A stretch of DNA of 64,000 nt. It comes from Gemmatimonadaceae bacterium (lineage in GTDB: Bacteria > Gemmatimonadota > Gemmatimonadetes > Gemmatimonadales > Gemmatimonadaceae). Below the pieces are notes generated by a model. The model did no database searches, had not been told where the DNA came from, and was given only the letters and a program-made list of their open reading frames with translations. The stretch spans positions 84,921 to 148,920 of the forward strand of contig JADLCY010000004.1 of the NCBI GenBank assembly GCA_020846935.1, read 5' to 3'. Shown in pieces: positions 36,385-53,860 of the stretch (position 1 is the first letter of the stretch; every line of letters starts with the position of its first letter). The translations under genes were made by a program, and so were the position numbers.

Positions 36385-39300
36385 TCAGCGGTCGTCCTGC
36401 TCGAACGGCGAGGACGCGGCGCCCGTACCGCTCGCGCGCACGACCTTCAGGCGCTGCCGCACCGACGTGCCCCCGGCGACGACCGTGACCAGGTACTCGC
36501 CGGGGCCCACCGTGGGCGCCTGAGGCCGACCCTGCAGGGCCTGGAAAGCGTTCTGGCCGGGAGGCGAAATGGCCTGGATGATCTGGAACGCGACCTGGGG
36601 GTCGGTAATGCCCGCCTGCGCTGCGCGGCCGGCCGCGCCACCGGCACCGCCCCCGCGTGGCATGGCGGCCTGCTCACCGGGCCGCGGATTGAAGCGATCA
36701 CCAGCGAACGCGGGCGTGGGGCCGGATGCCGCGCCGCCGACGCCGAACGCCTGCATCATCTGATTCATGTCGCCACCCTCGACCATACGCCGGAAGTTGG
36801 CGACGGCCGCGGAATCCATGCCTGACTTCAGCAGCGAGTCGAACACGAAGGCCCGCCGATTGGCAGCCACCGCGGAGTCGCGGCGCTGCGAGGGACTGAG
36901 CGGCCGCGGGGGCGGCGCCTTGCCCCGGAAATCCCAAACGACCTTGTGCACCCCGATCCCGGACGGGCCGGTGAGCGTGCGCAGCGTGTCGCCGGTGACG
37001 TCCTGGATATAGATGCGCGTCGCGGTGTTGCCGCGCTCTGTCAGCCGATAGGTGATCTCAGCGCCATAGGTCGGAACCGGTTGAGCGAACCACATGTGAC
37101 CGTACGACGCGCCACCCGGGCCCTGGCCTTCGATCGGCGGATCGCCCCACTGGAAAGCGATGCGTGGCTCATAGACATGTACTGCGGTTGCCACGACCGC
37201 TGGCGTCTCCTGCTGCAGCGGCAGGATGTCGACGATCCAGACGCCACGTCCATGCGTGGCGGCAATGAGCTCGTGGTCGCGCGGATGGATCTTGAGATCG
37301 GTCACGGGGACGGTTGGCAAGCCGGTCATGAACCGTCGCCACGACACGCCACCATTGGACGACGCATAAGCGCCGACATCGGTTCCGACGAAGAGCAGGT
37401 TCGGGTTCACCAGATCCTGCTTGATGACGTGCACGAAGTCGGGGCCACCGGTGGGCAGGTTCGCGGCGATCGACACGAAGCTCTTGCCGTAGTCGGTGGT
37501 GCGGTACACGTAGGGCGCAAAGTCGCCGACGCGATGATTGTCGAACGTCACGAACCACGTCGAGGAGTCGTGCGGGGACGGCTCGATTTCGCTCACATAC
37601 GCGTTGGCCGGCAGGCCGGGGAAGTTCTTCGAATGTTCGTCCCAGCTGCCGCCATCGTTCCGGCTGCTCCACACGCGCCCGTCATCGGTTCCGACATAGA
37701 GCAGCCCGGGCCGCAGCGGCGACTCGGCGAGCGAGACGATCGTGCCGTACGTCTCCGCGCCCGTGGCGTCTGGGGTGATGCCGCCCGTGGCTCGAGTGGA
37801 GACGCGGATCTTCATGGTGTCCGCGTAGCTCAGATCCGGCGAGATGGGGAACATCTCGTCGCCGCGTTTCGTGGACTTCATCACGCGGTTGGCACCGAGG
37901 TAGAGCGTAGTGTTGCTGTGCGGTGAGATGAAGTACGGCGTGTTCCAGTTCCAGCGGAGATCGAGGCCGGCCGAGTCGGCTTTCTGGCGCGCGCGCAACT
38001 CGGCGATGCGCTTCCTGATCGCCGAGGATTCGCGCACGGTCGTGTCGCCGCGCGCGACGATGATCGAGTCTTCCCACGCCTGCCAGGTGGCACGCCATGT
38101 CGGCTTGGCCAGCGACGTGCGTTCACCGGTGCGCATGTCCACACGTCCGACGTTGCCGCCCTGCGTCTCGGAATACGCGATGTGGGCTTCCACCGGATCC
38201 TGCTGTGTGACGAAGCCGTCGCCACCGCTGAGCGTGGCCCACATCGCGTTCGTGATCACGCCGCTCCGGCGGCGCGAGGGGCCGCACCACGATCCGTTGT
38301 CCTGCAGCCCGGCACAGACGCGGTAGGGCACCTGCATGTCGAACGACACGTTGTAGGGCTGGGCCAGCGTGAACGTGTTGGGGAACACGTAGCTGCCGCC
38401 CTGGTCAAAGCTCACGCCCACGCCGCCGTCGTTGCCGACGATCATGCGTTCGGGGTCGACCGGGTCGATCCACATGCCATGGTGATCCACGTGCAGACCT
38501 ACGGTCGCGTTCATCGCCGTCTTCCCGCCGTCGTTGGACACCTTCACCGGCGTGGAGGACCAGTACACGCGATCGGGATTCTTCGGGTGCACGCGAACCT
38601 GCGAGTAATAGAAGGGCCGCGTGTTTTCGTTGTTCGTGCGCGTCCATGTGGCGCCGCCGTCGGCAGAGCGGTAGAGTCCCGACGGTCGCGTCTGTGGCGC
38701 CTTCTTCGGCGCGTTGCGCGGCTGTGGATTGGCCGCGGTGTCGGCTTCGACCATGGTGTAGATCACGCGCGGGTCCGATGGTGCGATCGCGATGCTGATG
38801 CGGCCTTTCATTGTTTCCGGAAAGCCGCCGCCCTTGATCTCGGTCCACGTGCGACCGGCATCGGTGGACTTCCAGAGCGCCGATCCAGGGCCCCCCGACT
38901 GCAGGGAGTACGGGCTCCGTACGCGTTCCCAGCTCGCGGCCCACACCACGTCGGGGTTCGACGGATCGAGTGCCACGTCCACCACGCCGGCCTTGTCGGA
39001 GACGAACTTGACCAGCTCCCACGATTGGCCGCTGTCCGTCGTCTTGTACAGGCCGCGCTCCTTGTTGGCGTTCCAGATCGCGCCCACCGCGGCCACGTAC
39101 ACGATGTCGGGGTTGGTCGGATGCACGACCACGCGGCCGATGGCCTGCGTGCGCTCGAGGCCCATGAGCTTCCATGTGAGCCCGCCGTCGTTGGACTTGT
39201 AGACGCCGCCGCCGGGCGAGATCGAGTTGCGCGAGTTCGCCTCGCCCGTGCCCGCCCAGATCTGCATCGTGTCACTGGGCGCGATGGCGAGGTCGCCCAT

Positions 39301-39588
39301 CGAGATCACGCGCTCGCGGTCGAAGACCGGGCGCCACGTGACGCCGTTGTTGGTGCTCTTCCAGATGCCACCGGCCGCGGCGGCGAGGAAGAACGTCTTG
39401 GAGGGCGACGGAATGCCTTCGACGTCGGAGACGCGACCGCTGGTGTTGGCCGGGCCGACGTTGCGCCACTTGAGCGCAGCGATGGCGAGCGTGTCGCCGT
39501 CGTACCCGTTTATCTGTGCAGAGACCACGGGCGTGGTGGTGCACAGGAGTACGCACGCGGCGGCGAGTCGGAGCGCGGGATGAGACAT
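36385..39588 (-). CDS. sortilin/VPS10-like BNR (Asp-box) repeat protein, secreted
   Basis: The start is MSHPALRLAAACVLLCTTTPVVSAQ at 39588. Many Asp-box repeats are present: KSTNNGVTW, KSNDGGLTW, KTTDSGQSW, KSTDAGRTW, RSADGGATW, SRNDGGSW. Confidence 0.8.
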   Translation of the reverse strand: MSHPALRLAAACVLLCTTTPVVSAQINGYDGDTLAIAALKWRNVGPANTSGRVSDVEGIPSPSKTFFLAAAAGGIWKSTNNGVTWRPVFDRERVISMGDLAIAPSDTMQIWAGTGEANSRNSISPGGGVYKSNDGGLTWKLMGLERTQAIGRVVVHPTNPDIVYVAAVGAIWNANKERGLYKTTDSGQSWELVKFVSDKAGVVDVALDPSNPDVVWAASWERVRSPYSLQSGGPGSALWKSTDAGRTWTEIKGGGFPETMKGRISIAIAPSDPRVIYTMVEADTAANPQPRNAPKKAPQTRPSGLYRSADGGATWTRTNNENTRPFYYSQVRVHPKNPDRVYWSSTPVKVSNDGGKTAMNATVGLHVDHHGMWIDPVDPERMIVGNDGGVGVSFDQGGSYVFPNTFTLAQPYNVSFDMQVPYRVCAGLQDNGSWCGPSRRRSGVITNAMWATLSGGDGFVTQQDPVEAHIAYSETQGGNVGRVDMRTGERTSLAKPTWRATWQAWEDSIIVARGDTTVRESSAIRKRIAELRARQKADSAGLDLRWNWNTPYFISPHSNTTLYLGANRVMKSTKRGDEMFPISPDLSYADTMKIRVSTRATGGITPDATGAETYGTIVSLAESPLRPGLLYVGTDDGRVWSSRNDGGSWDEHSKNFPGLPANAYVSEIEPSPHDSSTWFVTFDNHRVGDFAPYVYRTTDYGKSFVSIAANLPTGGPDFVHVIKQDLVNPNLLFVGTDVGAYASSNGGVSWRRFMTGLPTVPVTDLKIHPRDHELIAATHGRGVWIVDILPLQQETPAVVATAVHVYEPRIAFQWGDPPIEGQGPGGASYGHMWFAQPVPTYGAEITYRLTERGNTATRIYIQDVTGDTLRTLTGPSGIGVHKVVWDFRGKAPPPRPLSPSQRRDSAVAANRRAFVFDSLLKSGMDSAAVANFRRMVEGGDMNQMMQAFGVGGAASGPTPAFAGDRFNPRPGEQAAMPRGGGAGGAAGRAAQAGITDPQVAFQIIQAISPPGQNAFQALQGRPQAPTVGPGEYLVTVVAGGTSVRQRLKVVRASGTGAASSPFEQDDR

Positions 39589-40191
39589 GTGACGGTGGCG
39601 AGGTGGGGAGACCGCGCATGAGTGAGCGCGCCGGATTCTATGTGGGGGCCACAAGCATGGGGAGGGAATGCCGTGCGGGGCCACGGGTGCGGGCGCGGGA
39701 CCAGCCAGCGGTCGCTGGGGAGTTTGCGCTGTGGGGAGGATCCTGAGGGTCTACGCGCGACCGGCTGGGGAGTGGTCGGACATTCGCGCAAGTACGGCAT
39801 CGACCTGTGCTGCGTCGTTGCCTTCTCCAGGCTTTCTCAGCGATGGCAGATAACCGGCCTGTTTGGCCGTGGTGCGATCGTGTGTTGATCGTGGTACAGC
39901 GTTCGCGTTGCTCCGGTCGCGCTTCCTCCGCGCTGTCGTTCTCGAGTGATGCTCTCCATCATAGAGTCTTGTGCGCCGTTCGGGCGCAGCATAAGAAGTC
40001 GACCGGCGTTCTGGTGACCAACGCCCAAGGTGATGGTGGTGTGGGACTTGGCCGCCATCTTCCTGAGGCAGGGCGCAGGTCGTATGCTGCGGATGGCGTG
40101 CTGGATAAGACCTTCGACGTGCGGCGAAGGGTTTGCAGCGCAGCCCAATACACGTTAGACCGAAGCACACCCTCTTGCGAGGAACTCACGA

Positions 40192-41022
40192 TTGCCGATG
40201 TCCCGTTTCCTCTTCGCGAGACTGAACCTCATCGCCGAGTACGACGACAAGCGGGCGTTCGTCCTGAAGGGGCTCAGTGGCCACCAGACCCGCAAGGTGC
40301 GATCGCACTTGTGGGGATTCTTCGAGGTCGAAGAGCTACCCGACTTTCCTGACTACGTAACGGGCTACCTCACGAAGCTCAAGCCGCTGTATGCCGAGGA
40401 GGTCGGGAATCTCGAAACTCATCAACTTGGCACCTCCGACGTAGCGAACCTAGCGGTAGCGAAGTCTCGCTTCTTTCTGCATATCCGGACGGGTATCGTC
40501 GCGTACCATGTGATCTCAAACCACGTTACGCGGCCGGTGTTCGAGGAGCAGTTTGCGCGGCTCTTCGAAGAGGGGCACCAGAAGTTCTTTGTGTCCGCGG
40601 ACCTGCAGACTATTGAGGCACGCGAGAGCTTCATGAAAGCGCTCGCATCAATGGAGCGCGTTGCCTTCCTCACACTCGAGCTGCATCCAACGAACCCATC
40701 TTTCTCGGAGATCTATCGAACGGTGGACGAGCGCCTAAAGCGGATTAAGGCGAAGTCCTACCGCGAGGAGATCGCCGCCTCCCGCGAGGGTCCAGGCCTG
40801 GTAGTAGGCGACGATGAGGATGTCGCGCGAAAGGTGACAATGGCTGAGGACGGCTATGGCCGGGCAGTCGCGGTCGGGACGCGCAACGGGAAGCGCTCCT
40901 CGATCGCCACAAGCCAGAATCCTGTCTCAACCCACGCGGATACCCGAGAGCGATCAGCGGGCCAGATTCTAGGTGCGATTGTGGACGACTTCGCCGCCCT
41001 GTTTCGGAGGATCTCCGAGTGA
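40192..41022 (+). CDS. hypothetical soluble protein (276 aa), first gene of a two-gene cassette
   Basis: GAGGAA (40179-40184) lies 7 nt before the TTG at 40192; an ATG follows at 40198. No hydrophobic helices and no motif I can assign. G+C is visibly lower than in neighbouring genes. Confidence 0.7.
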   Translation: MPMSRFLFARLNLIAEYDDKRAFVLKGLSGHQTRKVRSHLWGFFEVEELPDFPDYVTGYLTKLKPLYAEEVGNLETHQLGTSDVANLAVAKSRFFLHIRTGIVAYHVISNHVTRPVFEEQFARLFEEGHQKFFVSADLQTIEARESFMKALASMERVAFLTLELHPTNPSFSEIYRTVDERLKRIKAKSYREEIAASREGPGLVVGDDEDVARKVTMAEDGYGRAVAVGTRNGKRSSIATSQNPVSTHADTRERSAGQILGAIVDDFAALFRRISE

Positions 41023-41498
41023 GCCGCCGTCTCGGGATGCTCATCGGCATCGACGTCATCGCCGCACTCATTGTGCTTGCCGTGCTGCTTGCCTCACTGC
41101 CGACGTTCGTGCCCGTTCAGGTCGCCAAAGAGTTCTTCGGCGTGAGCGCTTCGGTGCTGTCAATCGTGTTCTCAGTATTTACGGCAGCTCTCGCGGTGAT
41201 CATCTCGTCCCCCGACGACAAGTTTGTGCGCTGGCTTGAGTCTGAGGGGATCTATAGGGACATTCTGTTCGGATTCAAGTCTACTCTTCTCGCGCTCTTC
41301 ACTGCCCTTGTCTCAAGCATCGGCGCGTTTTCGTGGACCGTGTTTCAGATTGAGGCTGGAGTGCGACTTCAACATCGGTCGGGGCTTCTAATTGGCTCCA
41401 CCTTGCTCGCCTATGCTTTGGTCGCAACGTTGCTCAGCACGCTAGCCGCGATTCGGCATGCTCACGCGAGGGCGGACTTCCTGCGCGGCTCGGTCTAA
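41019..41498 (+). CDS. hypothetical four-helix integral membrane protein (159 aa), second gene of the cassette
   Basis: GGAGGA (41006-41011) lies 7 nt before the GTG at 41019, and GTGA overlaps the upstream stop. The four hydrophobic segments are MLIGIDVIAALIVLAVLLASL, VSASVLSIVFSVFTAALAVIISS, STLLALFTALVSSIGAFSWTVF and LLIGSTLLAYALVATLLSTLAAI. Confidence 0.7.
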   Translation: MSRRLGMLIGIDVIAALIVLAVLLASLPTFVPVQVAKEFFGVSASVLSIVFSVFTAALAVIISSPDDKFVRWLESEGIYRDILFGFKSTLLALFTALVSSIGAFSWTVFQIEAGVRLQHRSGLLIGSTLLAYALVATLLSTLAAIRHAHARADFLRGSV

Positions 41499-41532
41499 CG
41501 GCAGTTGGTGACCGACGGCCGTCTAGGGAAGC

Positions 41533-41583
41533 TGGTGGGCGGCCGCACCTTATCGTACCTTTCGGTACGGCGCGGCCGCCCAC
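41533..41583. terminator. nested perfect hairpin between convergent cassette and doc genes
   Basis: The outer 13-bp stem is GGTGGGCGGCCGC (41533-41545) / GCGGCCGCCCACC (41571-41583). It encloses an inner hairpin, CGTACC-TTTC-GGTACG (41553-41568). Confidence 0.55.
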
Positions 41584-41620
41584 CTGCATCTTATTGAATC
41601 GGCCGCGGCACAACTTGACG

Positions 41621-42025
41621 TTAGGCGGCCCCCTGAGGCAACTTGACCAACCCTGCGCGAAGCCACTTCGCGAGCTTTGCCTCCGTAAGGCGCCCGTCGG
41701 CCAGTGCGACCATGTGCGCGACCACGTCGGCGTCGGGCGCGACGAAGTCCCAGCCGTTGAGCCCCAGGAAAATGACCGCCACGAGGAATGCGATGCGCTT
41801 GTTGCCGTCGTTGAACGGGTGGTTCCGGGCCAGTCCGAAGGCATACGCGGCGGCGAGCGAGGCATGATCGACGCGTTTGCCGTAGGCCAGCTTGTTGCAC
41901 GGCCGCGCCAGGGCGCTCTCGAGTGCCCCCTCATCCCGGAGACCAGGCATGCCGCCATGCGCGCGCAGCTGATCGAGATGCACCGCCTCGACGAGCGCGC
42001 GTGGAACCCAGCGAGGCTCGCGCAC
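41621..42025 (-). CDS. doc: Doc (death-on-curing) family Fic-fold toxin
   Basis: The Doc/Fic motif is HPFNDGNKRIAF. LRDEGALESALARP lies upstream. The start is a GTG at 42025, 6 nt after the antitoxin stop. Confidence 0.85.
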   Translation of the reverse strand: MREPRWVPRALVEAVHLDQLRAHGGMPGLRDEGALESALARPCNKLAYGKRVDHASLAAAYAFGLARNHPFNDGNKRIAFLVAVIFLGLNGWDFVAPDADVVAHMVALADGRLTEAKLAKWLRAGLVKLPQGAA

Positions 42026-42031
42026 GCCGCG

Positions 42032-42259
42032 TTACTTCGCCAGTTCGCGGAGGGCGTGCCGGTACCGTTTCGCGGCGCGCGCCGCGAGCGCCAGGCCGGC
42101 TTCGATGGTGGGATCGTAGGGCGTGAGCAGAATCCCGTTCTCGGTCTCGATCGCCAGCATCGAGTCGCCGACGGCGAGGTGGAGACGGTCGGCCATATCT
42201 TTCGGCAGGGTCGCGCCGACGGACCCGCCGACTTGCCGGAGTTTGATGGGACGCACCAT
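42032..42259 (-). CDS. AbrB/MazE/SpoVT-type antitoxin
   Basis: MVRPIKLRQVGGSVGATLPKDMADRLHLAVGDSMLAIETENGILLTP is a looped-hinge-helix (SpoVT/AbrB) fold signature. The ATG is at 42259. Confidence 0.8.
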   Translation of the reverse strand: MVRPIKLRQVGGSVGATLPKDMADRLHLAVGDSMLAIETENGILLTPYDPTIEAGLALAARAAKRYRHALRELAK

Positions 42260-42267
42260 CTTGCAAG

Positions 42268-42285
42268 GTAGCACACCCGTGCTAC
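42268..42285. promoter_or_regulatory. inverted repeat just upstream of the antitoxin start (candidate TA operator)
   Basis: GTAGCAC (42268-42274), ACCC and GTGCTAC (42279-42285) form the repeat. It lies 9 nt upstream of the antitoxin ATG, in the divergent intergenic region. Confidence 0.45.
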
Positions 42286-42331
42286 TGCGCCAAGGAGCCT
42301 CCAGTCCATTGTTGCAGCTGACGGCGGAGCT

Positions 42332-42832
42332 ATGGAGGGCGCTGAGGCACTCGCCGCGCTCGTGTCCACAGTGCGAAATGCCCCATTCCGCCGCAGCACC
42401 CTGCGTCGCGATGGCGCGTTTCGGCAGTGGACCAACGGAGATCTCCACGCGCGCCTTGAGCCGACGGAAACTGGCCATCGACTGCGATCGAGTACGCGCA
42501 AGGGTGAGGGGCCGGTCCTTCTGCGGCTGGGCGCCGCGGCCTTCGCTCTGTCGACGATGATGGCGGCGGCGATGCCGGTCGCCCCGGGCTGGGCCACCAT
42601 CGGACTCACCGCCTTCTCCGGCGTGGTCGGCCTGGCGGGGCTGTCGGTCCTCGCACTTCGCCTGCCCCGCTGGGCCCGAGTGCGCGCCGCGCAGATGGAA
42701 CAGATTGGAGTGCGCTTCGCCGCCTTGACCGAACAGAGGTCACTGCCCGCGCATCCCTCTGCGGGAGCCCGGGACGCGGTCGGCGATGCGTCGCCCGTGC
42801 TGGCAGCCACCGGGCGCGACGGGCTGACGTGA
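42332..42832 (+). CDS. hypothetical protein with two predicted TM helices
   Basis: The ORF has strong third-position G/C bias. Two hydrophobic segments are present (LLRLGAAAFALSTMMAAAMPV and IGLTAFSGVVGLAGLSVLAL). I recognised no family. Confidence 0.4.
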   Translation: MEGAEALAALVSTVRNAPFRRSTLRRDGAFRQWTNGDLHARLEPTETGHRLRSSTRKGEGPVLLRLGAAAFALSTMMAAAMPVAPGWATIGLTAFSGVVGLAGLSVLALRLPRWARVRAAQMEQIGVRFAALTEQRSLPAHPSAGARDAVGDASPVLAATGRDGLT

Positions 42833-42954
42833 GCCTTGGGGCGGGGCGCTGAGCCTCGGCGCGGGTCCCCACCTAAACGCTGAGAGCCCACCTGGCGTAG
42901 ACCCGTTCTCCGGACGCTTTACACTTTTGGGTGTGGAGGTCCGTTGGCGCCCCT

Positions 42955-45900
42955 TCAAGTCGCTCGCGCCAACAACGGAAACCCGAGCTGGCGCGCACGC
43001 ACCCCTGCCTCCACCAACCGACGCTCGGCGGACTTGAGTCCGGCGCGCTGTAGCTCCGGCGCACACTCGGTCACGAGCCACACGCTGGCGTAGGCATCGA
43101 GCCCGTCGAGACGGTCCACGGCACGCGCGAACACGTCCTGCGCCACGTTCGGATGACCGCCAGCAATCGCCATGCGCACCGCGAACGCGTCCACGAGTTC
43201 GCGGCCGGGGAACCACCAGTCCGGACGCGCATCAGCGACCAGCGCACTCGTACGCGCCCACCGCTGCTGCGTCGACGCCGACGTCGGGCCACCATTGCTC
43301 AATGCGGCGCCCGCCGTCGCGGCAAGCTCCATCCACGCCAGATCGAGGTCGCGCGCTCGCCGAGCCACGGCATCGAACTGCGCCTGCGCCCGATCACGAT
43401 CACCGCCGTCCCTGAGGAGCCGCGCGCCATCGAACAGCGTGCCGATGCGCTCGGGCTCGTCTTCCATGGTCGTGAACAGTCGCTCCGCGTCACCAAGCCA
43501 CTGGCGCGCCTCGTCATGATTGCCCTGGCGCGTACGTACGACGCCGAGCGCGCGGGAGATGCGTGCCGCGAGCGGGGCGTGATGGCTCGCGCGCGCCCGT
43601 TCCAGCGCCTGCACGAGCAGGTCCTCACCTTCGGACGACGCCTCCTGACGACACAGCGCCTCGCCAAGCACCTGCAGCGCGCGTGCGTCGTGCGTCGCGT
43701 GGGGACGCGCGCGCTGGCGTTCCAGCGCCTGACGCAAACGTGGCAGGCCCAGCTCGGGTGACTCCGCCAGTTGCGCGGTTCCCAGCTCAAGCATGGCCTC
43801 GGTGACGATGGCGTCGTCGCCGTGCGCAACACCCAGTTCGAGCGCCCGGCTCGCGAAGTGCTCGGCCATCGGCCAGTCGGCACGCTCGGCGGCGCTGGCG
43901 GCAGCGGCGAGGGCGCTCAGCGCCTCTTCGCGCGGGTGCACGCTGGCGGCGTCGTCGACGAGTCGTCGCAAGGCGTCCATCGTGTCGCCGGAGAAGGCGC
44001 CGCGCCGCTGCCGGATCCACGCGCGGACCCGGCGTCCGCGGATCGCGGTCGCGTCTACGGGTTGGCGGTCGAGCCACTCGAGCGCGAGGTCCGCCTGGGC
44101 CTCGGCCTGCGCGAGCCGGCCGGCCTGCAGCGCCACCTCGGCGTGCCGGACGCGGATGGTCGCGAGGTCTGCTGACGAGGGGGCGTGGCGCTGCGCGACC
44201 AGCAGGGCGGCGATGGCCGCGTCGTGAACACCGGTACCTAACGAGCGCTCCGCCGCTGCGCGTGCGTAGGCAAAGGCGGCGGCATCGTTGCCGGCGGCGT
44301 GGTAGTGGCCGGCGATCGCGTCCACCGAGGACGGGGCACGGAGTTCCATCACGCGAGCCGCAAGGTCGTGCACCTGCTGGCGCTGTCGCTCCGCCATCCC
44401 GCGCACACAGGCCTCGACGAGCAGCGGGTGGCCGAAGGCGTAGCGTCCTTCCGCGGGGTCTCCGACCGCCACGAGGATCGATGCGCGTACCGCTTCTTCG
44501 AGGGCGAGTCGCGCCTGGCCCTCAGGGACGCCGGTGACCGACACCAGCAGCTCGACGGTGAGGACGTTCTGCAGCACGGCGGCCGACGACAGGATGCTGC
44601 GCGAGGAGCCGGAGAGCCGATCGAGTCGTCGATCGAGCACCCAGCCGATACCGCTCGCCACGTCGCGCGGCCCCGGTTCGCGCCATTCCCACCGCGTGCC
44701 GCCGTACCAGATCGTGCCGTCGTCGCACCCGGCGCGCAGCAGGTGGAGCACGTGCAGCGGGATCCCTTCGGCGTAGTCATGGATCCAGCGCGCGACGTCG
44801 TCACCGGGGGCCGCATCGCGGAACACGAGCCGGATCCAGCGTCGCACTTCGTCGAGCCCAAAGCGCCGCAGCGTCACATGCGTGGTGCGCGCGTGCGCCA
44901 GGATCCGTCGCCGCCACTCGACCGCGCCGGGATGCACCTCGGGCCGCATGGTGTGGATGACGAGGAGGTGCTCGTCGTCCACCGCGGTGAGCAGGGCGTC
45001 GAGCACGGCCCAGCTGGCTGGCGTGGCGAGGTGCATGTCTTCGAGCACGACAACCAGCGGTCGTTCCCGCGCCGCTCGACGGACCACCGCGGTGATCTCC
45101 TGCTGCAGCAGTGTCGCGTCGGGCTCCTCGTCCTCGACGTCGGCCGGCGCCAGTTCGCCCGGCACAAGCGCAGGCAGCGCGCGCCAGGCGCGATCATGCA
45201 CGACGCCGGCCTTGGCCAGCGCGCTCACCACCGCGGGCCACGGCGCGAGCGGTCCGCCGGAGCCGTCGGCGGTCGTGATCCCGGTGGCAAGGAGCCCGTT
45301 GCGCAGTCGCACCTCGGGCTCGAGCTGCCTGACGAGTGCGCTCTTTCCGACCCCGGCTTCGCCGGAAATGCCGACGAGCCGAGGTTCGCCACGCGCGGCG
45401 AGGTCCAGCTGAGCGACGACGGATCGCAGCTCTTCTTCGCGGCCGGTGAACACGTCGAAGTCCAGCCCGTGTCGCGCGCGCGCCGACTCACCGTGGTCGG
45501 CCACCACGACGCGGCCACCGCCTTCGCTTCGCGCACGGAAGAGCGCCCGATCGCCGGCGGCGAGCAAGGCTTCCACCGTCTCGCCATCACCGGGCGCCAC
45601 CGCCACCGCGACCGAGGCGACCACCACGAGCGTCTCGTCAGGCGCGTGGCGCAGCGCGCAGCGCAGTCCACCCACCGCGTCTCGCAGCCGCTCGGCGACC
45701 TCCGTCGCCACGTTGACCGTGGTCTCCGGCAGCAGGACCACGAACTCGTCGCTCCCGCGACGGCCGATGAGATCACCGGTGCGCACGCCGCGTTGCAGCA
45801 CCTTGGCCACGGCCCACAAGACGTCGTCGCCCTGCAGCCGACCCCAGGTCGCGTTGACACGCGCAAAGTCGTCGATGTCGACGATGAGGATGGCGACATC

Positions 45901-47622
45901 ACCTTCAGGTCCGCGTCGCGCGCCGAGTGCCGCACTCGCGCGCGCGCTCCAGGACACGAAGTCGGCCGCACCGGTGAGTGGGTCGTCGGCCAGCGCGGTC
46001 GCGTTGCCCTGCGGCGTGACGGGAACGGCAACCGAAGACGTCACGCCGGGGATGGCGACGCCCTCGCGCACCACGTCCTCGAACACGCGGAAGACGGCGG
46101 GGTCGAACTGTCGCCCCACATCGCGCCGCATGACCTCGATCGCTTCGTCGCGGGTCAGCGGATCCTTGAAAGCGCGCCGAGCCAGGAGCGCATCGAACAC
46201 ATCGGCCACACAGAAGATGCGTGCCGCCAGCGGGATCTCCTCGCCGGCGCGACCGTGCGGATAGCCCGACCCGTTCCAGCACTCGTGATGCGACTCGACG
46301 ATGGGCCGCACTTCCCAGGGGAAGTCGGTATCGGCGAGCAACTCCGCGCCTGCGGCGGGGTGCCGCTTCACGGCCGACCACTCGTCCGCGGTGAGGCGCC
46401 CGCGTTTGTTGAGGATTGCCGGCGCGATCGCGAGCTTTCCGAGGTCGTGCAGGTACGCACCGACCCGGTAGCCGAACAGTGCCGTGGGGGCGATACCCAT
46501 GCGGCGTGCGATCTCCACGGTAAGGTCGGCCACGCGATCGACGTGACCCGCGGTATCGTGATCGACTGCTTCGAATCGTTGGGCCCAGTGCCGGGTCACG
46601 TCGAGGAACGTGCGTTCGAGCCGCCGGAGTCGTCGGGCGCGTTCCACCGAGCCGGTCTGCCCAAGGAGCCGGGCCAGGCTTCGGTAGGCATGGTTGAGTG
46701 CGCCAAGCGTGCGACGATGGTCGGGGCGACGGGCCAGGACCTCGGTGCGCTCGCAGGCCAGCTCGCCCAGCAGCATGGCGTCGTCGAGGGCATGCGCCTG
46801 GCGCTCGGCGTCCTCGAACAGCCGGAGCGCGCGATCGAGGTCGCCCAGCTCGCGGGCGACGATGCCCGTCATCGCCACGCTTTCGGTCGCGAGCCCCGGA
46901 TGTTCGGCGCGCCGCGCCATGTCGAGCGCGCGCTCGGCGGACACGCGGGCGCGCTCGACGTTGGACCGGTCGATCGCCATCTGCGAGCGCACCAGCTCGA
47001 GCCGGGCCAGCGATGGCAGGTCACTCGCCCGCTGCGCCCGCGGCAGTGCGTCCGCCAGCGCCTGCTCGGCGGCATTCCATCGTTTGAGATCGACGTAGAA
47101 GCGGGCGAGCTGCAGCTGTACCCGCACCGTGTCGGCGTCATCCCCGCGTTCGCGGAAGCCCGCGGCCGCGGCTTCGAGCTGGTCGAGGCTCGCGCCCCAG
47201 TCGTCGCGCACGAGCGCGACCGAGGCAAGGTGCTCGCTGCCTAACGCGACGAGCCAGCCCTGCCCCGCCGCCGCGGCCCGCACGCCCATTTCGCGGAAGT
47301 CGGCTTCGGCGTCGTCCAGCGCGCCCGCTTCGCACGCCAGCCGACCGCGCAGCTCCAGCGCCTCGGCGACGATCGCATCCATGTCGCCAAAGTCGGGGAG
47401 CGCAAACACGGCCTCGAGACAATCCCGCGCTTCCGCGTTCCGACCCGACGCCACGAACGTCCGGGCGATCTGCAGGAGCAGCGCAGCGACTGCAGGCGGT
47501 GGGGCGTCGTGATCGAGTTCCCGCATCGCGCGCTCGTAGTATTCGCGAGCGGCCTGAAACTCACCTCGCGCTTCAGCGAGGCGGCCGGGGTCCAGGGAGT
47601 GCGGATCGAGACGCGATGGCAT
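42955..47622 (-). CDS. large multidomain signalling protein: TPR-like N-terminus, HD-GYP, GGDEF-like, P-loop STAND/AAA_16 NTPase, long TPR-like C-terminus
   Basis: The start was reassigned to the ATG at 47622 (MPSRLDPHSL). HD-GYP motifs are LHDLGK and HHECWNGSGYP (nt 46258-46290). The GGDEF-like motif is RRGSDEF (45742-45762), with RTGD five residues upstream. Walker A is GEAGVGKS (45340-45363) and Walker B-like is LVVVLEDMH (45031-45057). About 690 further helical residues follow, and I recognised no HTH. Confidence 0.85.
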   Translation of the reverse strand: MPSRLDPHSLDPGRLAEARGEFQAAREYYERAMRELDHDAPPPAVAALLLQIARTFVASGRNAEARDCLEAVFALPDFGDMDAIVAEALELRGRLACEAGALDDAEADFREMGVRAAAAGQGWLVALGSEHLASVALVRDDWGASLDQLEAAAAGFRERGDDADTVRVQLQLARFYVDLKRWNAAEQALADALPRAQRASDLPSLARLELVRSQMAIDRSNVERARVSAERALDMARRAEHPGLATESVAMTGIVARELGDLDRALRLFEDAERQAHALDDAMLLGELACERTEVLARRPDHRRTLGALNHAYRSLARLLGQTGSVERARRLRRLERTFLDVTRHWAQRFEAVDHDTAGHVDRVADLTVEIARRMGIAPTALFGYRVGAYLHDLGKLAIAPAILNKRGRLTADEWSAVKRHPAAGAELLADTDFPWEVRPIVESHHECWNGSGYPHGRAGEEIPLAARIFCVADVFDALLARRAFKDPLTRDEAIEVMRRDVGRQFDPAVFRVFEDVVREGVAIPGVTSSVAVPVTPQGNATALADDPLTGAADFVSWSARASAALGARRGPEGDVAILIVDIDDFARVNATWGRLQGDDVLWAVAKVLQRGVRTGDLIGRRGSDEFVVLLPETTVNVATEVAERLRDAVGGLRCALRHAPDETLVVVASVAVAVAPGDGETVEALLAAGDRALFRARSEGGGRVVVADHGESARARHGLDFDVFTGREEELRSVVAQLDLAARGEPRLVGISGEAGVGKSALVRQLEPEVRLRNGLLATGITTADGSGGPLAPWPAVVSALAKAGVVHDRAWRALPALVPGELAPADVEDEEPDATLLQQEITAVVRRAARERPLVVVLEDMHLATPASWAVLDALLTAVDDEHLLVIHTMRPEVHPGAVEWRRRILAHARTTHVTLRRFGLDEVRRWIRLVFRDAAPGDDVARWIHDYAEGIPLHVLHLLRAGCDDGTIWYGGTRWEWREPGPRDVASGIGWVLDRRLDRLSGSSRSILSSAAVLQNVLTVELLVSVTGVPEGQARLALEEAVRASILVAVGDPAEGRYAFGHPLLVEACVRGMAERQRQQVHDLAARVMELRAPSSVDAIAGHYHAAGNDAAAFAYARAAAERSLGTGVHDAAIAALLVAQRHAPSSADLATIRVRHAEVALQAGRLAQAEAQADLALEWLDRQPVDATAIRGRRVRAWIRQRRGAFSGDTMDALRRLVDDAASVHPREEALSALAAAASAAERADWPMAEHFASRALELGVAHGDDAIVTEAMLELGTAQLAESPELGLPRLRQALERQRARPHATHDARALQVLGEALCRQEASSEGEDLLVQALERARASHHAPLAARISRALGVVRTRQGNHDEARQWLGDAERLFTTMEDEPERIGTLFDGARLLRDGGDRDRAQAQFDAVARRARDLDLAWMELAATAGAALSNGGPTSASTQQRWARTSALVADARPDWWFPGRELVDAFAVRMAIAGGHPNVAQDVFARAVDRLDGLDAYASVWLVTECAPELQRAGLKSAERRLVEAGVRARQLGFPLLARAT

Positions 47623-47716
47623 TTCACGGTTCAGCAAGGCAACTATAGACGATTCACGGCGGCCCCGGTTGCGGAAGTCGAGTGCCGCGCGGGAGTTACG
47701 CCAGACCCCTCTGTGT

Positions 47717-48469
47717 ATGCGTGTCGTTTCGCTCTGTCCGTCGCTCACCGAGCTCGTCTTCGACCTGGGGATGGGCCCCGCGCTCGTCGGCCGCACGAAG
47801 TTCTGCGTGCATCCTGCACCGGGGGTGGCCAACGTGGAAACAGTCGGCGGGACAAAGACGCCCAAGGTGGCCCGTATCATCGACTTGCGTCCCGATATCG
47901 TGCTCATGAACGACGAGGAGAATCGTCGGGAAGACGCCGGGGCGCTGACCGCGGCCGGAGTTCGCGTCCACTCGACCATGCCGATCACCGCGGAGGAGAC
48001 GGCCGCCATGGTGCGATCGATCGCTGATGCGCTCGGCGCCACCGATGCCGGAGAGGCGGTCGCGCGCGACATCGAGCGGCGGGCGGCGCGCGTGCGTGCG
48101 GCCGCGACGTCTGCGCCGCACGTCGACTATGCGTACCTCATTTGGCGCGAGCCCTGGATGACCGTGAGCGACGACACCTTCATCGCCGGGCTCCTGGGCA
48201 TGGCCGGCGGCCGCAACGTCTTTGCTGACGCGAAAGACCGATATCCCACGATCACGCTCGAGCAGCTCGCAGAACGGTCGCCATCGGTGGTGTTGCTGTC
48301 GAGCGAACCGTTTCCGTTCGCTGAAAAACACGTCGACGAGCTGTCATCCACGCTGGGCTGGGAGGTGGGCCGCTTTCGACTGGTAGACGGCGAGCTGCTT
48401 TCGTGGCACGGTTCGCGGACGCCCCGGGGAATCGACTACGCCGAATCCGTCATCGCGGCGGCGCGGTGA
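47717..48469 (+). CDS. BtuF-like helical-backbone binding protein (cobalamin/metal receptor fold), no signal peptide
   Basis: MRVVSLCPSLTELVFDLGMGPALVGRTKFCVHP ... VGGTKTPKVARIIDLRPDIVLMN is typical of the Peripla_BP_2 / cobalamin-binding family. Confidence 0.7.
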   Translation: MRVVSLCPSLTELVFDLGMGPALVGRTKFCVHPAPGVANVETVGGTKTPKVARIIDLRPDIVLMNDEENRREDAGALTAAGVRVHSTMPITAEETAAMVRSIADALGATDAGEAVARDIERRAARVRAAATSAPHVDYAYLIWREPWMTVSDDTFIAGLLGMAGGRNVFADAKDRYPTITLEQLAERSPSVVLLSSEPFPFAEKHVDELSSTLGWEVGRFRLVDGELLSWHGSRTPRGIDYAESVIAAAR

Positions 48470-48594
48470 CGAGTGGCGCACATGGCGGCCCGCGTGGCTG
48501 CGGGCCGTCCAGCGATTCGCGCGCGTCATCCCATCGCGCGCGGCCCGGTCGGCAGGCATCGCGATCTTCGTCGTCCCGACACGCCCGAGCAGTC

Positions 48595-49482
48595 ATGATC
48601 CGCGCCGCCCTCCTGCTTGCCACGCTGTACGCGCTGCCACTTGCCGCGCAGGCGCCCCCGATGCGCATCGATCACGAGCGCGTGCGGCCGCGCGTCCACG
48701 TCTTCTCGGGATTCCTGAACGGCAACGTGCTGGTGCTCGAGACCAACGACGGACTGCTGATCGTCGATGCGCAGAGCGGCAAGCGGGTCGGCGCCCTGGA
48801 CTCGGCCATCACGAATGTGACGAAGGCGCCGGTGCGATGGGTGGTGAACACCCACTATCACGCCGACCACACCGAGGGGAACGCGTGGTTCCGTGCCCGA
48901 GGGGCGCGCGTGCTGGCGCACCGCAACGTGGCCATTCAGGCGGCGAAGGACACGACGATCACCGACCGTGACTGGCACCGCACGCCGTTGGCCGACTCGG
49001 CGACGCCAACGGATGCCTTCGACGATCGGCGCGAGCTGAAGATCGGGGGCGAACGCGTGGTCGTGCTGCATCCGCGCGATGCGCACACGGACGGCGACGC
49101 GATGATCTGGCTTCCCGCGCAGAACGTGCTGCACATCGGCGACATCCTCGAGGTGGGCGCGCCGCCGTTCATCGATTGGTGGGCGGGTGGTTCACTCGAG
49201 GGCATGGTGCGCGCCATCGACGATGTGCTCGGCTGGGTCGACGCGTCCACGGCCATCGTGCCCGGGCATGGTCCGACTTCAACCAGGGACGACCTCGTGC
49301 GCTATCGCGCGATGCTCGTCACGGTGAGTGAGCGGGTGCGAACCGGGATCGCGAGCGGCGTGGCGTCGGACTCACTGGCCGAACGTGCCGTTGCCGGTTT
49401 CGAGAGCCTGCTGGGTGGCACGCGGCGCGCAAGCGAGCTGTCCCGGCAGCTGATCTACGGGTTCTCGAAGGGACGGAAGTAG
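48595..49482 (+). CDS. MBL-fold metallo-hydrolase (secreted)
   Basis: It has a signal peptide (MIRAALLLATLYALPLAAQA). The motif is VNTHYHADHTEGN. AHTDGD and VPGHG lie downstream. Confidence 0.8.
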   Translation: MIRAALLLATLYALPLAAQAPPMRIDHERVRPRVHVFSGFLNGNVLVLETNDGLLIVDAQSGKRVGALDSAITNVTKAPVRWVVNTHYHADHTEGNAWFRARGARVLAHRNVAIQAAKDTTITDRDWHRTPLADSATPTDAFDDRRELKIGGERVVVLHPRDAHTDGDAMIWLPAQNVLHIGDILEVGAPPFIDWWAGGSLEGMVRAIDDVLGWVDASTAIVPGHGPTSTRDDLVRYRAMLVTVSERVRTGIASGVASDSLAERAVAGFESLLGGTRRASELSRQLIYGFSKGRK

Positions 49483-49488
49483 CCGAGC

Positions 49489-51843
49489 TCAGCGCCTGAA
49501 GAGGTACGACAGCTTGACGAAGAACCCGTCGCGTACGCGCTCGAAGTGCCGAAAGCGGAAGGCATCGGGCTCGGTGAGCGAACTGCCATAGCCGGCAAAC
49601 ACCACCGTGCCGGGGCTCGGGACATAGCTGAACAGCCAGTCCATGCGGAGGTCACGCGTGGCCGTTGCGGTTGCGCGGCGGTAGGTGGCTCCGTTGAGGA
49701 TGGCGAGCGGCAGTTCGGTGGCGGGATCGCGCAGGGCGTCGCGCGTTCGGTGGTCATATTGGCCCACGAAGCGCAGGAAGAGTGCGCGGCTCAGCTGATA
49801 CTCCAGGCGCAGGCGCGGCACGCTGGCACGCGAAAGCGTGGTGCCGTCCCGAGAGCGCGTATAGTGCGAATAGAGGTACGATCCGGTGAGGCGCATCTGA
49901 TCGGTCGGCCGCAGGTCCACCTCGCCGGTGAGGTCCACGCGGCGCGCGGTGGACGTCTCGAAGAACTCGATGTCGCGTCCGATGAAGCCCGTGAACCGCC
50001 CGGTCCAACGCTCGAACTGCGGTGTGTTGAGCCGGAGGAGGACCACGGCGGTCGGCGTTCGGCGCGACGGCGTGAACGCTGCTGTGTCGATGGCGCCGCC
50101 GGTCGCGGGGCGCAGCACGCGATAGCGGGCGTAGGTGCGCGTGTCAAACAGGAAGGTCTCGCGCACCGGCGTCACGCTCAGCACCCAGCCGCCCCGGATA
50201 TTGAAGACATTCTCCGCCTGGATCTTGGTTTCCTGCACGCTCTTGCCATCGCGGAACCGATCGAAGGTCCAGAGCCAGTCGAAGCCTTGCCGAATGAGAT
50301 AGCTCTCGATGAAGTCGCCCGGCTTGCCGAACCACGAGAAGCGGTTGTACGCCGTGGTCGACACGAAGTCGGTGCGGGGGACAAAGCCGGCCGCGGCGCG
50401 GAAGTCCTCGCCGATGCCGCTGAACGTGTAGCGATAGCCGTAGCGCAGGCCGGTGCGGTTGGCGCCGAAGTCCCAGAGGGGTGCGGTGCGCGTGTCGCCA
50501 CCGGCCGGGTCGCGCGTAGCGCTTCCCCCGAGCGAGGCATTGAAGCTGTAGGCGCCCTTCCAGACCAGGCGGGTGTCGGCCACGCCTACTCGGCTGAAGC
50601 CGTCGCCCTCGGTGCGATCGGTGAGCGTGAGCCCCATCGTGGACGCCTGGAACACGTCACGACGCAGACGCAGGATATTGAACAGCGGACGGTCCTTCCC
50701 GTCTTGTGAGGCGTCGTCGCTGTCCAGTGCGCCCATGTATGCGACGCTCGTGCGACCGAAGCGCCCGGTGAGCTTGGTCGCGAGGTCCGGCTGCAGGATC
50801 TGTCGTGTGTACACGAGGTTGTTGGGCGCATCGAACTGCTCGATGCCGTCAATGAAGAACGGGCGCCGCTCGGGGAAGAACAGCGAGAAGCGTGTGTCGC
50901 CCGGTACCTGTGCCGCGTCGGCCTCCACCTGGGAGAAGTCCGGACGGACGGTCGCGTTCATCGTCAGGTTGGGCACGATGCGCCACCGGAGATTGCCACC
51001 GAGGTTGGGCTTTGACGTGTACGTCCACTCGGGAGTCGGTGCGCCGTTGAGCGACTCGGTGAGTTCGGGGTTGAGCTCCACCACGGCCTCGCGGCGCAGG
51101 TCATGCAGGCCCCGGAGCGTGCCCGATTGCACGAGGAAGGATGCCGCGCCGCGACGTGCCGGTGTCCATGTCTGCTGGTAGCCGGAGTGCTGGACAAATC
51201 GCACGACCTGCAGCGCCCAGTCCTGCAAGTTCGTGCCCTGGAATCGAAGGCTCTTGAGCGGAATGGCCACCTCGAGCTCGTAGCCGGTGTCAGTCACGCG
51301 CCCTCGTGAGGCAAACACAAAGTCCGGGCTGAGATCGATGAACGCGGGCGGGTTGCCGCCAAAGGTCTGGCCGCGGGGCTGCGGTGGGCTGAACCCCTCG
51401 GTGCGAACACCGTCAGCCTGTGCGCCCAGCGGGTTGATGCCAAACACGAATGCGCGTCGCCGGTCGTTGAAGGGATCGATCAGCAGCTGGATGTAGTCAT
51501 CCATGTCGATCTTGTCGCGCGCGGCGAGCGTGGCATGTACCGAGCCGTGTGTCTCGTGCGCGACGACGCCGAAGTAGACGTGGGTCGACGAGTACCAGAC
51601 CCTCACTTCCGTCGAGTCGTGCGCCTCGCGCCCGTCGATGGGCAGATACGCCGAGAACCCGGTGAGCAGGGCGGCGCGCTGCCAGACGGGCTCATCGAGC
51701 ACGCCATCCACGGACACGCTATCGTCGAAGCGGGGCACCTCGGCGACCAGGCCGCCGCGGCGGCCGTGATAGGTGCGATCCTGTGCGTGTGCGGACAGGG
51801 GCGCGGCACTCGCAACCGCGAGCAGGAAAACGGCGAGACGCAC
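49489..51843 (-). CDS. CBM9-like + DUF5916-type outer-membrane protein
   Basis: It has a signal peptide. VDGVLDEPVWQRAALLTGFSAYLPIDGREAHDSTEVRVWYSSTHVYFG is typical of this family. The C-terminal region is long and beta-rich, ending LSYLFRR. Confidence 0.7.
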   Translation of the reverse strand: MRLAVFLLAVASAAPLSAHAQDRTYHGRRGGLVAEVPRFDDSVSVDGVLDEPVWQRAALLTGFSAYLPIDGREAHDSTEVRVWYSSTHVYFGVVAHETHGSVHATLAARDKIDMDDYIQLLIDPFNDRRRAFVFGINPLGAQADGVRTEGFSPPQPRGQTFGGNPPAFIDLSPDFVFASRGRVTDTGYELEVAIPLKSLRFQGTNLQDWALQVVRFVQHSGYQQTWTPARRGAASFLVQSGTLRGLHDLRREAVVELNPELTESLNGAPTPEWTYTSKPNLGGNLRWRIVPNLTMNATVRPDFSQVEADAAQVPGDTRFSLFFPERRPFFIDGIEQFDAPNNLVYTRQILQPDLATKLTGRFGRTSVAYMGALDSDDASQDGKDRPLFNILRLRRDVFQASTMGLTLTDRTEGDGFSRVGVADTRLVWKGAYSFNASLGGSATRDPAGGDTRTAPLWDFGANRTGLRYGYRYTFSGIGEDFRAAAGFVPRTDFVSTTAYNRFSWFGKPGDFIESYLIRQGFDWLWTFDRFRDGKSVQETKIQAENVFNIRGGWVLSVTPVRETFLFDTRTYARYRVLRPATGGAIDTAAFTPSRRTPTAVVLLRLNTPQFERWTGRFTGFIGRDIEFFETSTARRVDLTGEVDLRPTDQMRLTGSYLYSHYTRSRDGTTLSRASVPRLRLEYQLSRALFLRFVGQYDHRTRDALRDPATELPLAILNGATYRRATATATRDLRMDWLFSYVPSPGTVVFAGYGSSLTEPDAFRFRHFERVRDGFFVKLSYLFRR

Positions 51844-51872
51844 GTGAGCGGGAGGTAAGGGGAGCGCCGCGA

Positions 51873-52682: not shown

Positions 52683-52689
52683 GTCGTCG

Positions 52690-53769: not shown

Positions 53770-53860
53770 AAGGGGCGCTGAGGGGCTGCCATAAGCTAAC
53801 CCGGTGCCGCTGGTTGGCATTGGGAGCCGGCCGTACCTTCCGGCGTCCCTCCCACTGCAC

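Follow-up and report, generated by a model that had tools for sequence, protein, structure and literature searches.

A Gemmatimonadota STAND protein with HD-GYP and GGDEF-like domains, a candidate oligomerisation-gated switch of cyclic di-GMP turnover

A 64,000-nucleotide stretch of a Gemmatimonadaceae genome (assembly GCA_020846935.1, contig JADLCY010000004.1, positions 84,921 to 148,920; hereafter the window, with positions counted from its first letter) carries on the reverse strand, at 42955..47622, a gene for a protein of 1555 amino acids in which predicted cyclic di-GMP (c-di-GMP) enzymes are joined to a STAND ATPase. Control of c-di-GMP enzymes lies nearly always with small sensor domains at the N-terminus (PAS, GAF, REC, CHASE); in place of these the present protein has a large C-terminal STAND ATPase and a sensor of tetratricopeptide repeats (TPR). 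Judged by its sequence, it is a STAND with c-di-GMP effectors, in which the tested hallmarks of the HD-GYP and STAND families were found and the canonical GGDEF active site was not. We consider it likely that the protein is a STAND-gated, ATP-dependent and ligand-triggered oligomeric switch of c-di-GMP turnover.

The gene and its modules

The longest reverse-strand open reading frame (ORF) at this locus spans 42955-48072, and the ATG at 47622 opens a gene of 1555 codons and a stop, as judged from the ORF list, the translation and full-length homologue alignment. The portion of the ORF lying 5' of this ATG mirrors in antisense a Peripla_BP_2 gene that runs divergently on the forward strand (47669-48469; Pfam 6e-20) and is not itself coding. 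The 1555-residue product aligns at 98-100% coverage with about 100 homologue clusters of 1520-1640 amino acids; since homologues of the same length align from end to end, the gene is intact and without a frameshift. No second copy was found elsewhere in the 64-kb window. The protein contains no transmembrane-like segment, the maximum Kyte-Doolittle value over 19 residues (KD19) being 1.73 and located in the HD-GYP core, and it is predicted to be soluble and cytoplasmic.

The modules follow one another in the order TPR-like (aa 7-320), HD-GYP (aa 326-520), GGDEF (aa 546-708), STAND core (aa 722-1075) and a TPR tail that continues to the C-terminus. Pfam places HD_5 at 357-510 (1e-31), GGDEF at 547-702 (4e-27) and AAA_16 at 725-889 (2e-21); TPR_12 matches the tail in four stretches, and the first 330 residues match TPR models weakly. 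NCBIfam is consistent with this domain set and offers no equivalog. Two AlphaFold2 (AF2) models were made from a 69-sequence family alignment. The model of aa 1-1150 has a predicted local distance difference test score (pLDDT) of 88.7 and a predicted template-modelling score (pTM) of 0.53, at which the inter-domain geometry is not predicted, and that of aa 720-1555 has a pLDDT of 91.6 and a pTM of 0.73. Foldseek matches agree with the assignment for every domain. Low-pLDDT, disordered linkers separate HD-GYP from GGDEF (aa 529-540) and GGDEF from the STAND core (aa 711-720).

The N-terminal TPR-like module (46663..47604, reverse strand) is modelled as a superhelix of 16 helices, about eight repeats of around 40 residues, with pLDDT mostly above 90. 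Its Foldseek matches are to the peptide-binding TPR domain of LGN/Pins, with 3ro2 giving the highest TM-score (TMt 0.74). No helix-turn-helix (HTH), GerE, LuxR or SARP DNA-binding domain was found at either terminus by Pfam, by NCBIfam or in the AF2 models; the terminal HTH that marks a transcription factor of the MalT/LuxR or SARP type is absent, the N-terminus being TPR and the C-terminus ending in TPR helices.

A preliminary description of this DNA, made from its letters, had proposed a protein of about 1555 residues at 42955-47622 with just this order of modules, a “GGDEF-like” domain among them, a STAND-type P-loop NTPase and no DNA-binding output. The coordinates and length are borne out by the full-length alignment to about 100 homologues, which also leaves no room for an ORF split by a frameshift; Pfam, AF2 and Foldseek confirm the order, and Pfam supports both the HD-GYP and the GGDEF assignment. 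The claimed modules are all seen in the two models, and the label “GGDEF-like” was apt for a domain whose signature is GSDEF.

The STAND core and TPR sensor

The STAND core (44398..45459, reverse strand, as are all features of the protein) comprises a nucleotide-binding domain (NBD), a helical domain (HD) and a winged-helix domain (WHD) at aa 722-1075, the region matched by AAA_16. Conservation was judged from alignments of 31 and of 69 full-length relatives (32-72% identity) and from a motif census of 102 clusters. The Walker A motif GEAGVGKS (45340..45363; aa 754-761) follows the family pattern GE.G.GK[ST], in which G754, E755, G757, G759 and K760 are invariant, and the motif is found in 101 of the 102 clusters. 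Within Walker B, VVVLEDM (45034..45054; aa 857-863), D862 is invariant in the 31 aligned sequences and nearly so in the 69. The sensor-1 motif T891-x-R893, the GxP motif E952-G953-x-P955 and F1063-x-H1065 of the WHD are invariant or nearly invariant in the family alignments. It is clear that the protein has the features by which STANDs are recognised: a P-loop NBD with Walker A and B motifs, the NBD-HD-WHD arrangement with sensor-1 arginine, GxP and WHD histidine, a C-terminal repeat sensor (TPR, aa 1078-1555) and a terminal effector, here the N-terminal enzymatic domains. The STAND-type NTPase of the preliminary description is therefore present with its motifs intact and conserved across the family.

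The arm and C-terminal TPR sensor (42958..44391; aa 1078-1555) include the four TPR_12 stretches and are all-helical in the AF2 model, with about 24 TPR-type helices following the STAND core and reaching the last residue. A WWFxGRE motif in this tail (43195-43218; aa 1469-1475) is nearly invariant, the conserved residues being W1470, F1471, G1473, R1474 and E1475.

When the C-terminal 836 residues were compared with solved structures by Foldseek, the best match was the TPR-STAND PH0952 (6mfv, E 5e-13). Avs3 (8dgc) matched at 2e-9, and further STAND matches were EfAvs5, Apaf-1, MalT (8bob), CED-4 and plant NLRs. A sequence search of the PDB with the nucleotide-binding oligomerisation domain (NOD) alone gave nothing significant apart from a plant NLR that matched at the level of Walker A, and a whole-family profile search of the PDB, dominated by GGDEF and TPR entries, was uninformative on the STAND part.

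The HD-GYP and GGDEF domains

The HD-GYP phosphodiesterase domain, with its N-terminal helix, lies at 46063..46647 (aa 326-520). Among PDB sequences it matches V-cGAP3 (5z7c, 1e-36), PmGH (4mcw, 2e-27) and PA4781 (4r8z, 1e-23), and Foldseek gives a TMt of about 0.8 to PA4781 and to DvhD (9rbz). In both alignments E351, D354, H360, H392-D393, K396, H421, H445-H446-E447, G451, G453-Y454-P455 and D474 are invariant; the HD dyad and the further His, Asp and Glu metal ligands of the HD superfamily are all present, window copy included. The signature HHExW[DN]GxGYP occurs in 101 of the 102 clusters. In the window copy it reads HHECWNGSGYP (46258..46290; aa 445-455), in which the GYP of the general motif HHExxDGxGYP is intact and N450 replaces, in this copy alone, the aspartate of the family consensus HHExWDGSGYP.

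The GGDEF domain (45499..45987; aa 546-708; TIGR00254 2e-31 in addition to the Pfam match) has the fold of its family, with a TMt of about 0.9 in Foldseek to several cyclases, 3ign and 4urs among them. D584, D599, R621, D625, E626 and F627 are invariant in the family alignments and N590 is nearly so; the metal and guanine-contact residues D584, N590, D599, R621 and D625/E626 are present and conserved. By the residue roles established in structures of PleD, these are the equivalents of PleD D327, N335, D344, R366 and E370, with D599 at the position of D344; the equivalent of PleD K442 is an arginine in the window copy. Because the specificity residue D599 is invariant, the sequence indicates a guanine-specific domain that is not of the Hypr type, and a Hypr-GGDEF (cyclic GMP-AMP (cGAMP) synthase) reading was rejected on this ground. 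An RxxD inhibitory-site (I-site) motif, RTGD (45772..45783; aa 614-617), lies five residues upstream of the active-site signature, and such a motif is found in 88 of the 94 scorable family members.

The signature itself is non-canonical at its second glycine: the window copy has GSDEF (45742..45756; aa 623-627) where GG[DE]EF would be canonical. Among the 94 scorable members, GGDEF is found in 32, AGDEF in 23, GSDEF in 21 and other forms in 18. The variants are distributed by clade, AGDEF belonging to the deepest-branching members, GGDEF to a middle clade, and GSDEF to the window's clade together with SGDEF, SSDEF, SADEF, GDDEF, GEDEF, GADEF, GTDEF, TGDEF, DADEF and ETDEF. The pair of phosphodiesterase-type and diguanylate-cyclase-type domains that had been placed at the N-terminal effector position is thus present as to both domains; as to activity the two are not equal, since GSDEF stands in the window copy and its clade drifts at the GG positions, while the HD-GYP residues are invariant. 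For this reason the HD-GYP phosphodiesterase is, as a predicted activity, the constant enzymatic output of the family. In the clades that have GGDEF or AGDEF, the cyclase and phosphodiesterase activities are probably both real.

What the substitution means for the window copy has to be judged from other proteins. Cyclase activity is possible in enzymes with AGDEF or SGDEF, and “each DGC follows its own rules”, DGC being diguanylate cyclase (PMC3974145). The GSDEF domain of SesB and the GEDEF domain of PdeA are reported, in a summary elsewhere, as having no cyclase activity and yet regulating the attached phosphodiesterase (PMC13571940). We give an even chance to the view that the GGDEF domain of the window copy is a module for sensing GTP and c-di-GMP, or for dimerisation, rather than a cyclase.

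It is less likely, though it deserves some weight, that the window copy is truly bifunctional, so that GSDEF would still make c-di-GMP and the STAND would toggle net synthesis and degradation as in GGDEF-EAL proteins. The remaining catalytic and substrate residues (D582/D584, N590, D599, R621, D625, E626) are kept, as is the product-inhibition I-site, which is most meaningful in an active cyclase; furthermore, other enzymes with a non-canonical first position are active (PMC3974145), and nearly all hybrids of HD-GYP and GGDEF were considered likely to be bifunctional by Seshasayee et al. (PMC2952852). Here, however, it is the second glycine that is substituted, as in the GSDEF and GEDEF domains reported to be without cyclase activity (PMC13571940). 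Different lineages of the window's clade have S, D, E, A or T at this position, which suggests relaxed constraint and not a tuned variant, and the lysine equivalent to PleD K442 has become arginine.

A protein in which both enzymatic domains of the window copy were silent, leaving a scaffold that binds c-di-GMP or GTP and assembles partners on its two TPR arms, is very improbable. GSDEF combined with the N450 substitution would fit such a protein, as would the two large TPR surfaces for protein interaction seen with AF2 and Foldseek, and degenerate GGDEF receptors are known (PopA and PelD, cited in PMC3974145); but the metal ligands of HD-GYP are all invariant, in the window copy too, and its signature is kept in all but one of the 102 clusters, as expected of an active hydrolase.

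Relation to known systems

The closest relatives of the protein are short GGDEF-AAA_16-TPR proteins (e.g. P0159, P0124 and P0138), which have the same GGDEF-NOD-TPR core, lack the N-terminal TPR and HD-GYP modules and are labelled in databases just as “tetratricopeptide repeat protein” or “diguanylate cyclase”. Its closest mechanistic analogues are the actinobacterial cyclase-AAA_16-TPR proteins and the TPR-STANDs with an N-terminal effector, PH0952 and AfsR. With MalT, PH0952 and AfsR (6mfv, 8bob) it shares NBD-HD-WHD, Walker A and B, sensor-1 arginine, GxP and WHD histidine, and beyond these an arm and TPR sensor; its effector is N-terminal, like those of PH0952 and AfsR, and it is PH0952 that gives the best fold match. 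In all three the effector is a DNA-binding domain, whereas here it is a pair of c-di-GMP enzymes with an additional N-terminal TPR block, and in sequence the protein hardly resembles any solved STAND. The class III adenylate/guanylate cyclase-AAA_16-TPR proteins of the mycobacterial Rv0386 type, an architecture described in a preprint (bioRxiv 10.1101/2024.03.06.583649), resemble it in placing a dimerisation-dependent palm-domain cyclase directly before an AAA_16 STAND and TPR. The present protein differs from them in having GGDEF and not Guanylate_cyc, in lacking a C-terminal LuxR HTH, and in the addition of HD-GYP and the N-terminal TPR. Over aa 726-1138 there is a match to the model TIGR03903 (TOMM kinase/cyclase fusion; 2e-25) that falls far short of the model's cut-off.

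Seshasayee et al. (2010) counted 74 hybrids of HD-GYP and GGDEF (PMC2952852). Proteins of this kind, such as the GAF-HD_5-GGDEF proteins P0103-P0120, have the same tandem of HD-GYP and GGDEF with about 40% identity over both domains; they carry PAS, GAF or REC sensors at the N-terminus and nothing after GGDEF, in contrast to the C-terminal STAND-TPR that forms the main regulatory module here. One of the two hybrids without an intact GGDEF site in that survey, GAU1030 of Gemmatimonas aurantiaca T-27 (PMC2952852), agrees in this with the present family and is probably a member of it. The solved HD-GYP proteins PmGH (4mcw), PA4781 (4r8z), V-cGAP3 (5z7c) and DvhD (9rbz) have all the metal ligands as well as the GYP loop in common with it, with TMt of about 0.8; unlike in the present protein, their regulatory domains are REC, GAF-like or PAS. 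Since 3'3'-cGAMP is the preferred substrate of V-cGAP3, the substrate is not to be read from the structural match.

Distribution and origin of the family

About 100 full-length relatives, at 32-70% identity, have the same architecture and a near-constant length; a look-up of the window protein itself gave no record. Every one that bears an organism name comes from Gemmatimonadota or Gemmatimonadaceae metagenome-assembled genomes (e.g. MDP1857850.1, HEX4931533.1, MBK8250023.1, HEY5417844.1), and the database labels are “diguanylate cyclase” or “HD domain-containing phosphohydrolase”. The next-best matches are the GAF-HD_5-GGDEF proteins, with about 12% query coverage. A scan of a genome collection with the full protein gave just unrelated HD-GYP/GGDEF loci (Aquificota, Nitrosomonas and others), single-protein patterns being too specific there.

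With aa 540-1150 (GGDEF and NOD) as query, HMMER was run exhaustively against 1.84 billion representatives and recovered the long forms and many proteins of 1020-1250 amino acids that align from their own N-terminus. Domain models of our own assigned the 146 newly listed matches to GGDEF-NOD(-TPR) proteins without HD-GYP (about 80) and long forms (about 20), the remainder having tandem GGDEF, several NODs, or NOD N-terminal to GGDEF. The short forms, which are 24-38% identical to the window protein over aa 540-1150, were confirmed as GGDEF+AAA_16+TPR by Pfam in nine of nine tested, and in a homology search seeded with P0159 all of the best 120 matches were GGDEF-AAA_16-TPR. Named sources are WOR-3, Hydrothermota, TA06, Aegiribacteria, Aerophobetes and Auribacterota, with some Gemmatimonadaceae; AGDEF or GGDEF sites are common among them.

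In a rough neighbour-joining tree of the GGDEF-NOD core, made without support values, all the long forms and seven short forms make up one clade, P0138 from Gemmatimonadaceae (MGQ0537469.1) branches beside it, and the remaining short forms lie outside. This suggests a single accretion of TPR and HD-GYP onto a GGDEF-STAND-TPR ancestor, as far as the sequences can tell; some of the short forms in the tree may be truncated gene calls. Six short forms of about 1020 amino acids, the closest to the long family (P0141, P0143, P0144, P0145, P0148 and P0149), have no xGDEF signature and no Walker A by regular expression, and in P0141 GGDEF and AAA_16 are still found by Pfam despite this; by their sequences these proteins may be doubly degenerate paralogues, pseudo-enzymes. 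A separate set of 1400-1750 amino acids (P0212, P0213, P0231, P0232 and P0249) ends in a canonical GGEEF or GGDEF domain, preceded by one or two NOD modules. The order being reversed in this set, GGDEF and STAND must have been joined more than once and in both orientations.

By its own terms the preliminary description would have been set aside by an architecture both widespread and already characterised. The GGDEF-STAND core did prove to be widespread, but no published characterisation of such a fusion was found in a literature search with poor coverage of subscription journals; the fusion is already common and annotated in databases, yet unstudied.

Genomic context

The gene looks monocistronic. 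A consensus scan found no sigma-70-like promoter and one terminator-like hairpin inside the gene, at chance level; the consensus is uninformative for Gemmatimonadota in both respects. About 46 bp (47622-47669) separate the ATG from the TTG at which the divergent Peripla_BP_2 gene could start at the earliest, and the equivalent gap at L006, in the syntenic locus (L006/L007) that holds a 60%-identical orthologue, is about 115 bp. The Peripla_BP_2 gene probably starts further in, because its Pfam domain begins at aa 19 of the translation.

Upstream, Peripla_BP_2 is followed by genes for a metallo-beta-lactamase (MBL)-fold protein, a DUF5916 protein (784 aa), the caa3 assembly factor CtaG and a SCO1/SenC-PCuAC fusion (together 48403-53907). 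SCO1/SenC-PCuAC serves copper delivery to cytochrome oxidase, and the same backbone set flanks the orthologue at L006 and at L008, the locus of a 52%-identical relative. Downstream there is a low-GC islet of about 3.2 kb (39700-42900; GC 0.56-0.62 against about 0.68), and then a gene for a secreted Sortilin/Vps10-BNR protein (36385-39684, reverse strand; 1099 aa). The islet holds a DUF4747-like ORF (40192-41022, forward; E 1.5e-4, below the Pfam cut-off), an ORF for a hydrophobic product of 159 aa (41019-41498, forward; 4 nt shared with the DUF4747-like ORF), a Fic/Doc toxin (41621-42025, reverse; 3e-15; motif HPFNDGNKR) and a MazE/AbrB antitoxin (42032-42478, reverse; domain aa 81-124, the true start being probably internal). 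There is no tRNA between 36 and 49 kb of the window.

Two further reverse-strand ORFs were considered as neighbours and rejected as shadow frames: one of 211 aa (47696-48331), where the real gene is Peripla_BP_2, and one of 485 aa (41434-42891), where the real genes are the Doc/MazE pair. Both have the Arg/Ser/Pro-rich translations typical of high-GC DNA.

At L006/L007 the backbone SCO1-CtaG-Peripla_BP_2-[gene]-Sortilin/BNR runs without a break, and the gene and Sortilin are about 140 bp apart. Since the islet is missing from this syntenic locus, it is an insertion in the window genome. The relative at L008 retains the DUF5916-MBL-Peripla_BP_2 side, and there a WYL/HTH_PafC regulator and a SusC/SusD pair (3112-4343 of L008) lie between Peripla_BP_2 and the orthologue, which makes the upstream intergenic region a recurrent insertion point. 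Relatives at 33-42% identity have unrelated metabolic and regulatory genes as neighbours, and no conserved partner gene was found across the loci compared.

These comparisons bear on the role in defence that had been thought conceivable from the position of the gene beside the islet. That the protein is an Avs-like antiviral STAND, which would make or destroy a signal nucleotide on sensing a phage protein and be tied to the islet, is the most improbable of the readings weighed here: its fold does resemble Avs3 and EfAvs5 among others, the TPR sensors of some Avs systems recognise proteins, and the adjoining islet has a Doc/MazE pair and a DUF4747-like gene, but no PADLOC model was found for the protein or the islet ORFs beyond a trivial Cas3-HD fragment (E 0.002) and a generic TPR model (E 0.007) on the protein, the gene directly adjoins Sortilin/BNR where the islet is absent, distant orthologues sit among metabolic, housekeeping genes, and the strongest fold match is to the non-defence PH0952 (5e-13) as against 2e-9 for Avs3. 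Furthermore, the effectors are c-di-GMP enzyme domains and not a cell-killing effector, and the family looks vertically inherited, phylum-wide and of constant length over its 32-70% identity, unlike a patchy, island-associated mobile defence gene. The suggested role in defence is accordingly not supported; from its sequence and surroundings the protein is taken to be a regulator of housekeeping type and not a phage-defence gene.

Discussion

For activity GGDEF domains must dimerise, each of the two protomers being loaded with GTP, and HD-GYP enzymes are likewise dimeric. A resting STAND is a closed monomer with bound ADP, kept in autoinhibition by its arm and sensor until an inducer leads to opening, exchange for ATP and multimerisation (PMC6468293; MalT, PMC10427625; AfsR, PMC10936776). 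As the STAND motifs of the present protein are intact and conserved, an oligomerisation-gated c-di-GMP switch, as suggested in the preliminary description, can reasonably be inferred. Like PH0952 and MalT, the resting protein would be a closed monomer with ADP in its NOD, kept inactive by the arm and TPR sensor. Binding of a ligand (a small molecule, peptide or protein) to the C-terminal TPR would open the NOD, ATP would replace ADP and the protein would multimerise, gathering the N-terminal enzymatic domains that hang on the two disordered linkers. Since GGDEF must pair to bring two GTP together and HD-GYP domains act as dimers, oligomerisation would shift the balance between the making and breaking of c-di-GMP. 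In the window copy and its close relatives, GGDEF would act as a sensing and dimerisation module and the HD-GYP phosphodiesterase as the catalytic output; the LGN-like superhelix at the N-terminus could plausibly serve as a second input or for the docking of partners. The module set, the intactness of the gene and the conservation pattern are observations, and the rest of this scheme would carry over from the enzymology of STANDs and of c-di-GMP.

Several points weigh against this switch. Its sign, that is whether phosphodiesterase or cyclase is turned on or off, and its ligand are not deducible from sequence, and the activities assigned to all members of the family come from sequence and model. 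The inactivity of GSDEF would be an extrapolation from other proteins, and the effect of N450 in place of the family aspartate in HHExxDGxGYP is not predictable. The substrate could include cGAMP as well as c-di-GMP, because the closest solved HD-GYP relative (5z7c) is a 3'3'-cGAMP phosphodiesterase. Finally, the low pTM of the N-terminal model leaves the arrangement of the domains relative to one another unpredicted.

The fusion is no surprise in kind, since STANDs are known to take many effectors. If the proposed switch is real, it would join the proximity-induced activation of STANDs to the dimerisation-dependent catalysis of GGDEF and HD-GYP. More tentatively, and with the balance somewhat against it, the present family and the wider GGDEF-STAND-TPR group of uncultivated phyla related to the FCB (Fibrobacteres-Chlorobi-Bacteroidetes) group could be the first second-messenger enzymes licensed by the ATP-dependent oligomerisation of a STAND, in a hub resembling an apoptosome or resistosome that would make or destroy c-di-GMP and not activate a protease, a nuclease or transcription. 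The decay of GG clade by clade, with all else kept, offers a natural series for the transition of GGDEF from enzyme to sensor, and working out one member would provide annotation for hundreds of large genes now labelled “TPR protein” or “diguanylate cyclase”. The protein is conserved in Gemmatimonadota, a soil phylum that is abundant but has been little studied, and several candidate phyla commonly have its core; on the more tentative reading, it would be a phylum-wide master switch of the Gemmatimonadota with two independent TPR inputs.

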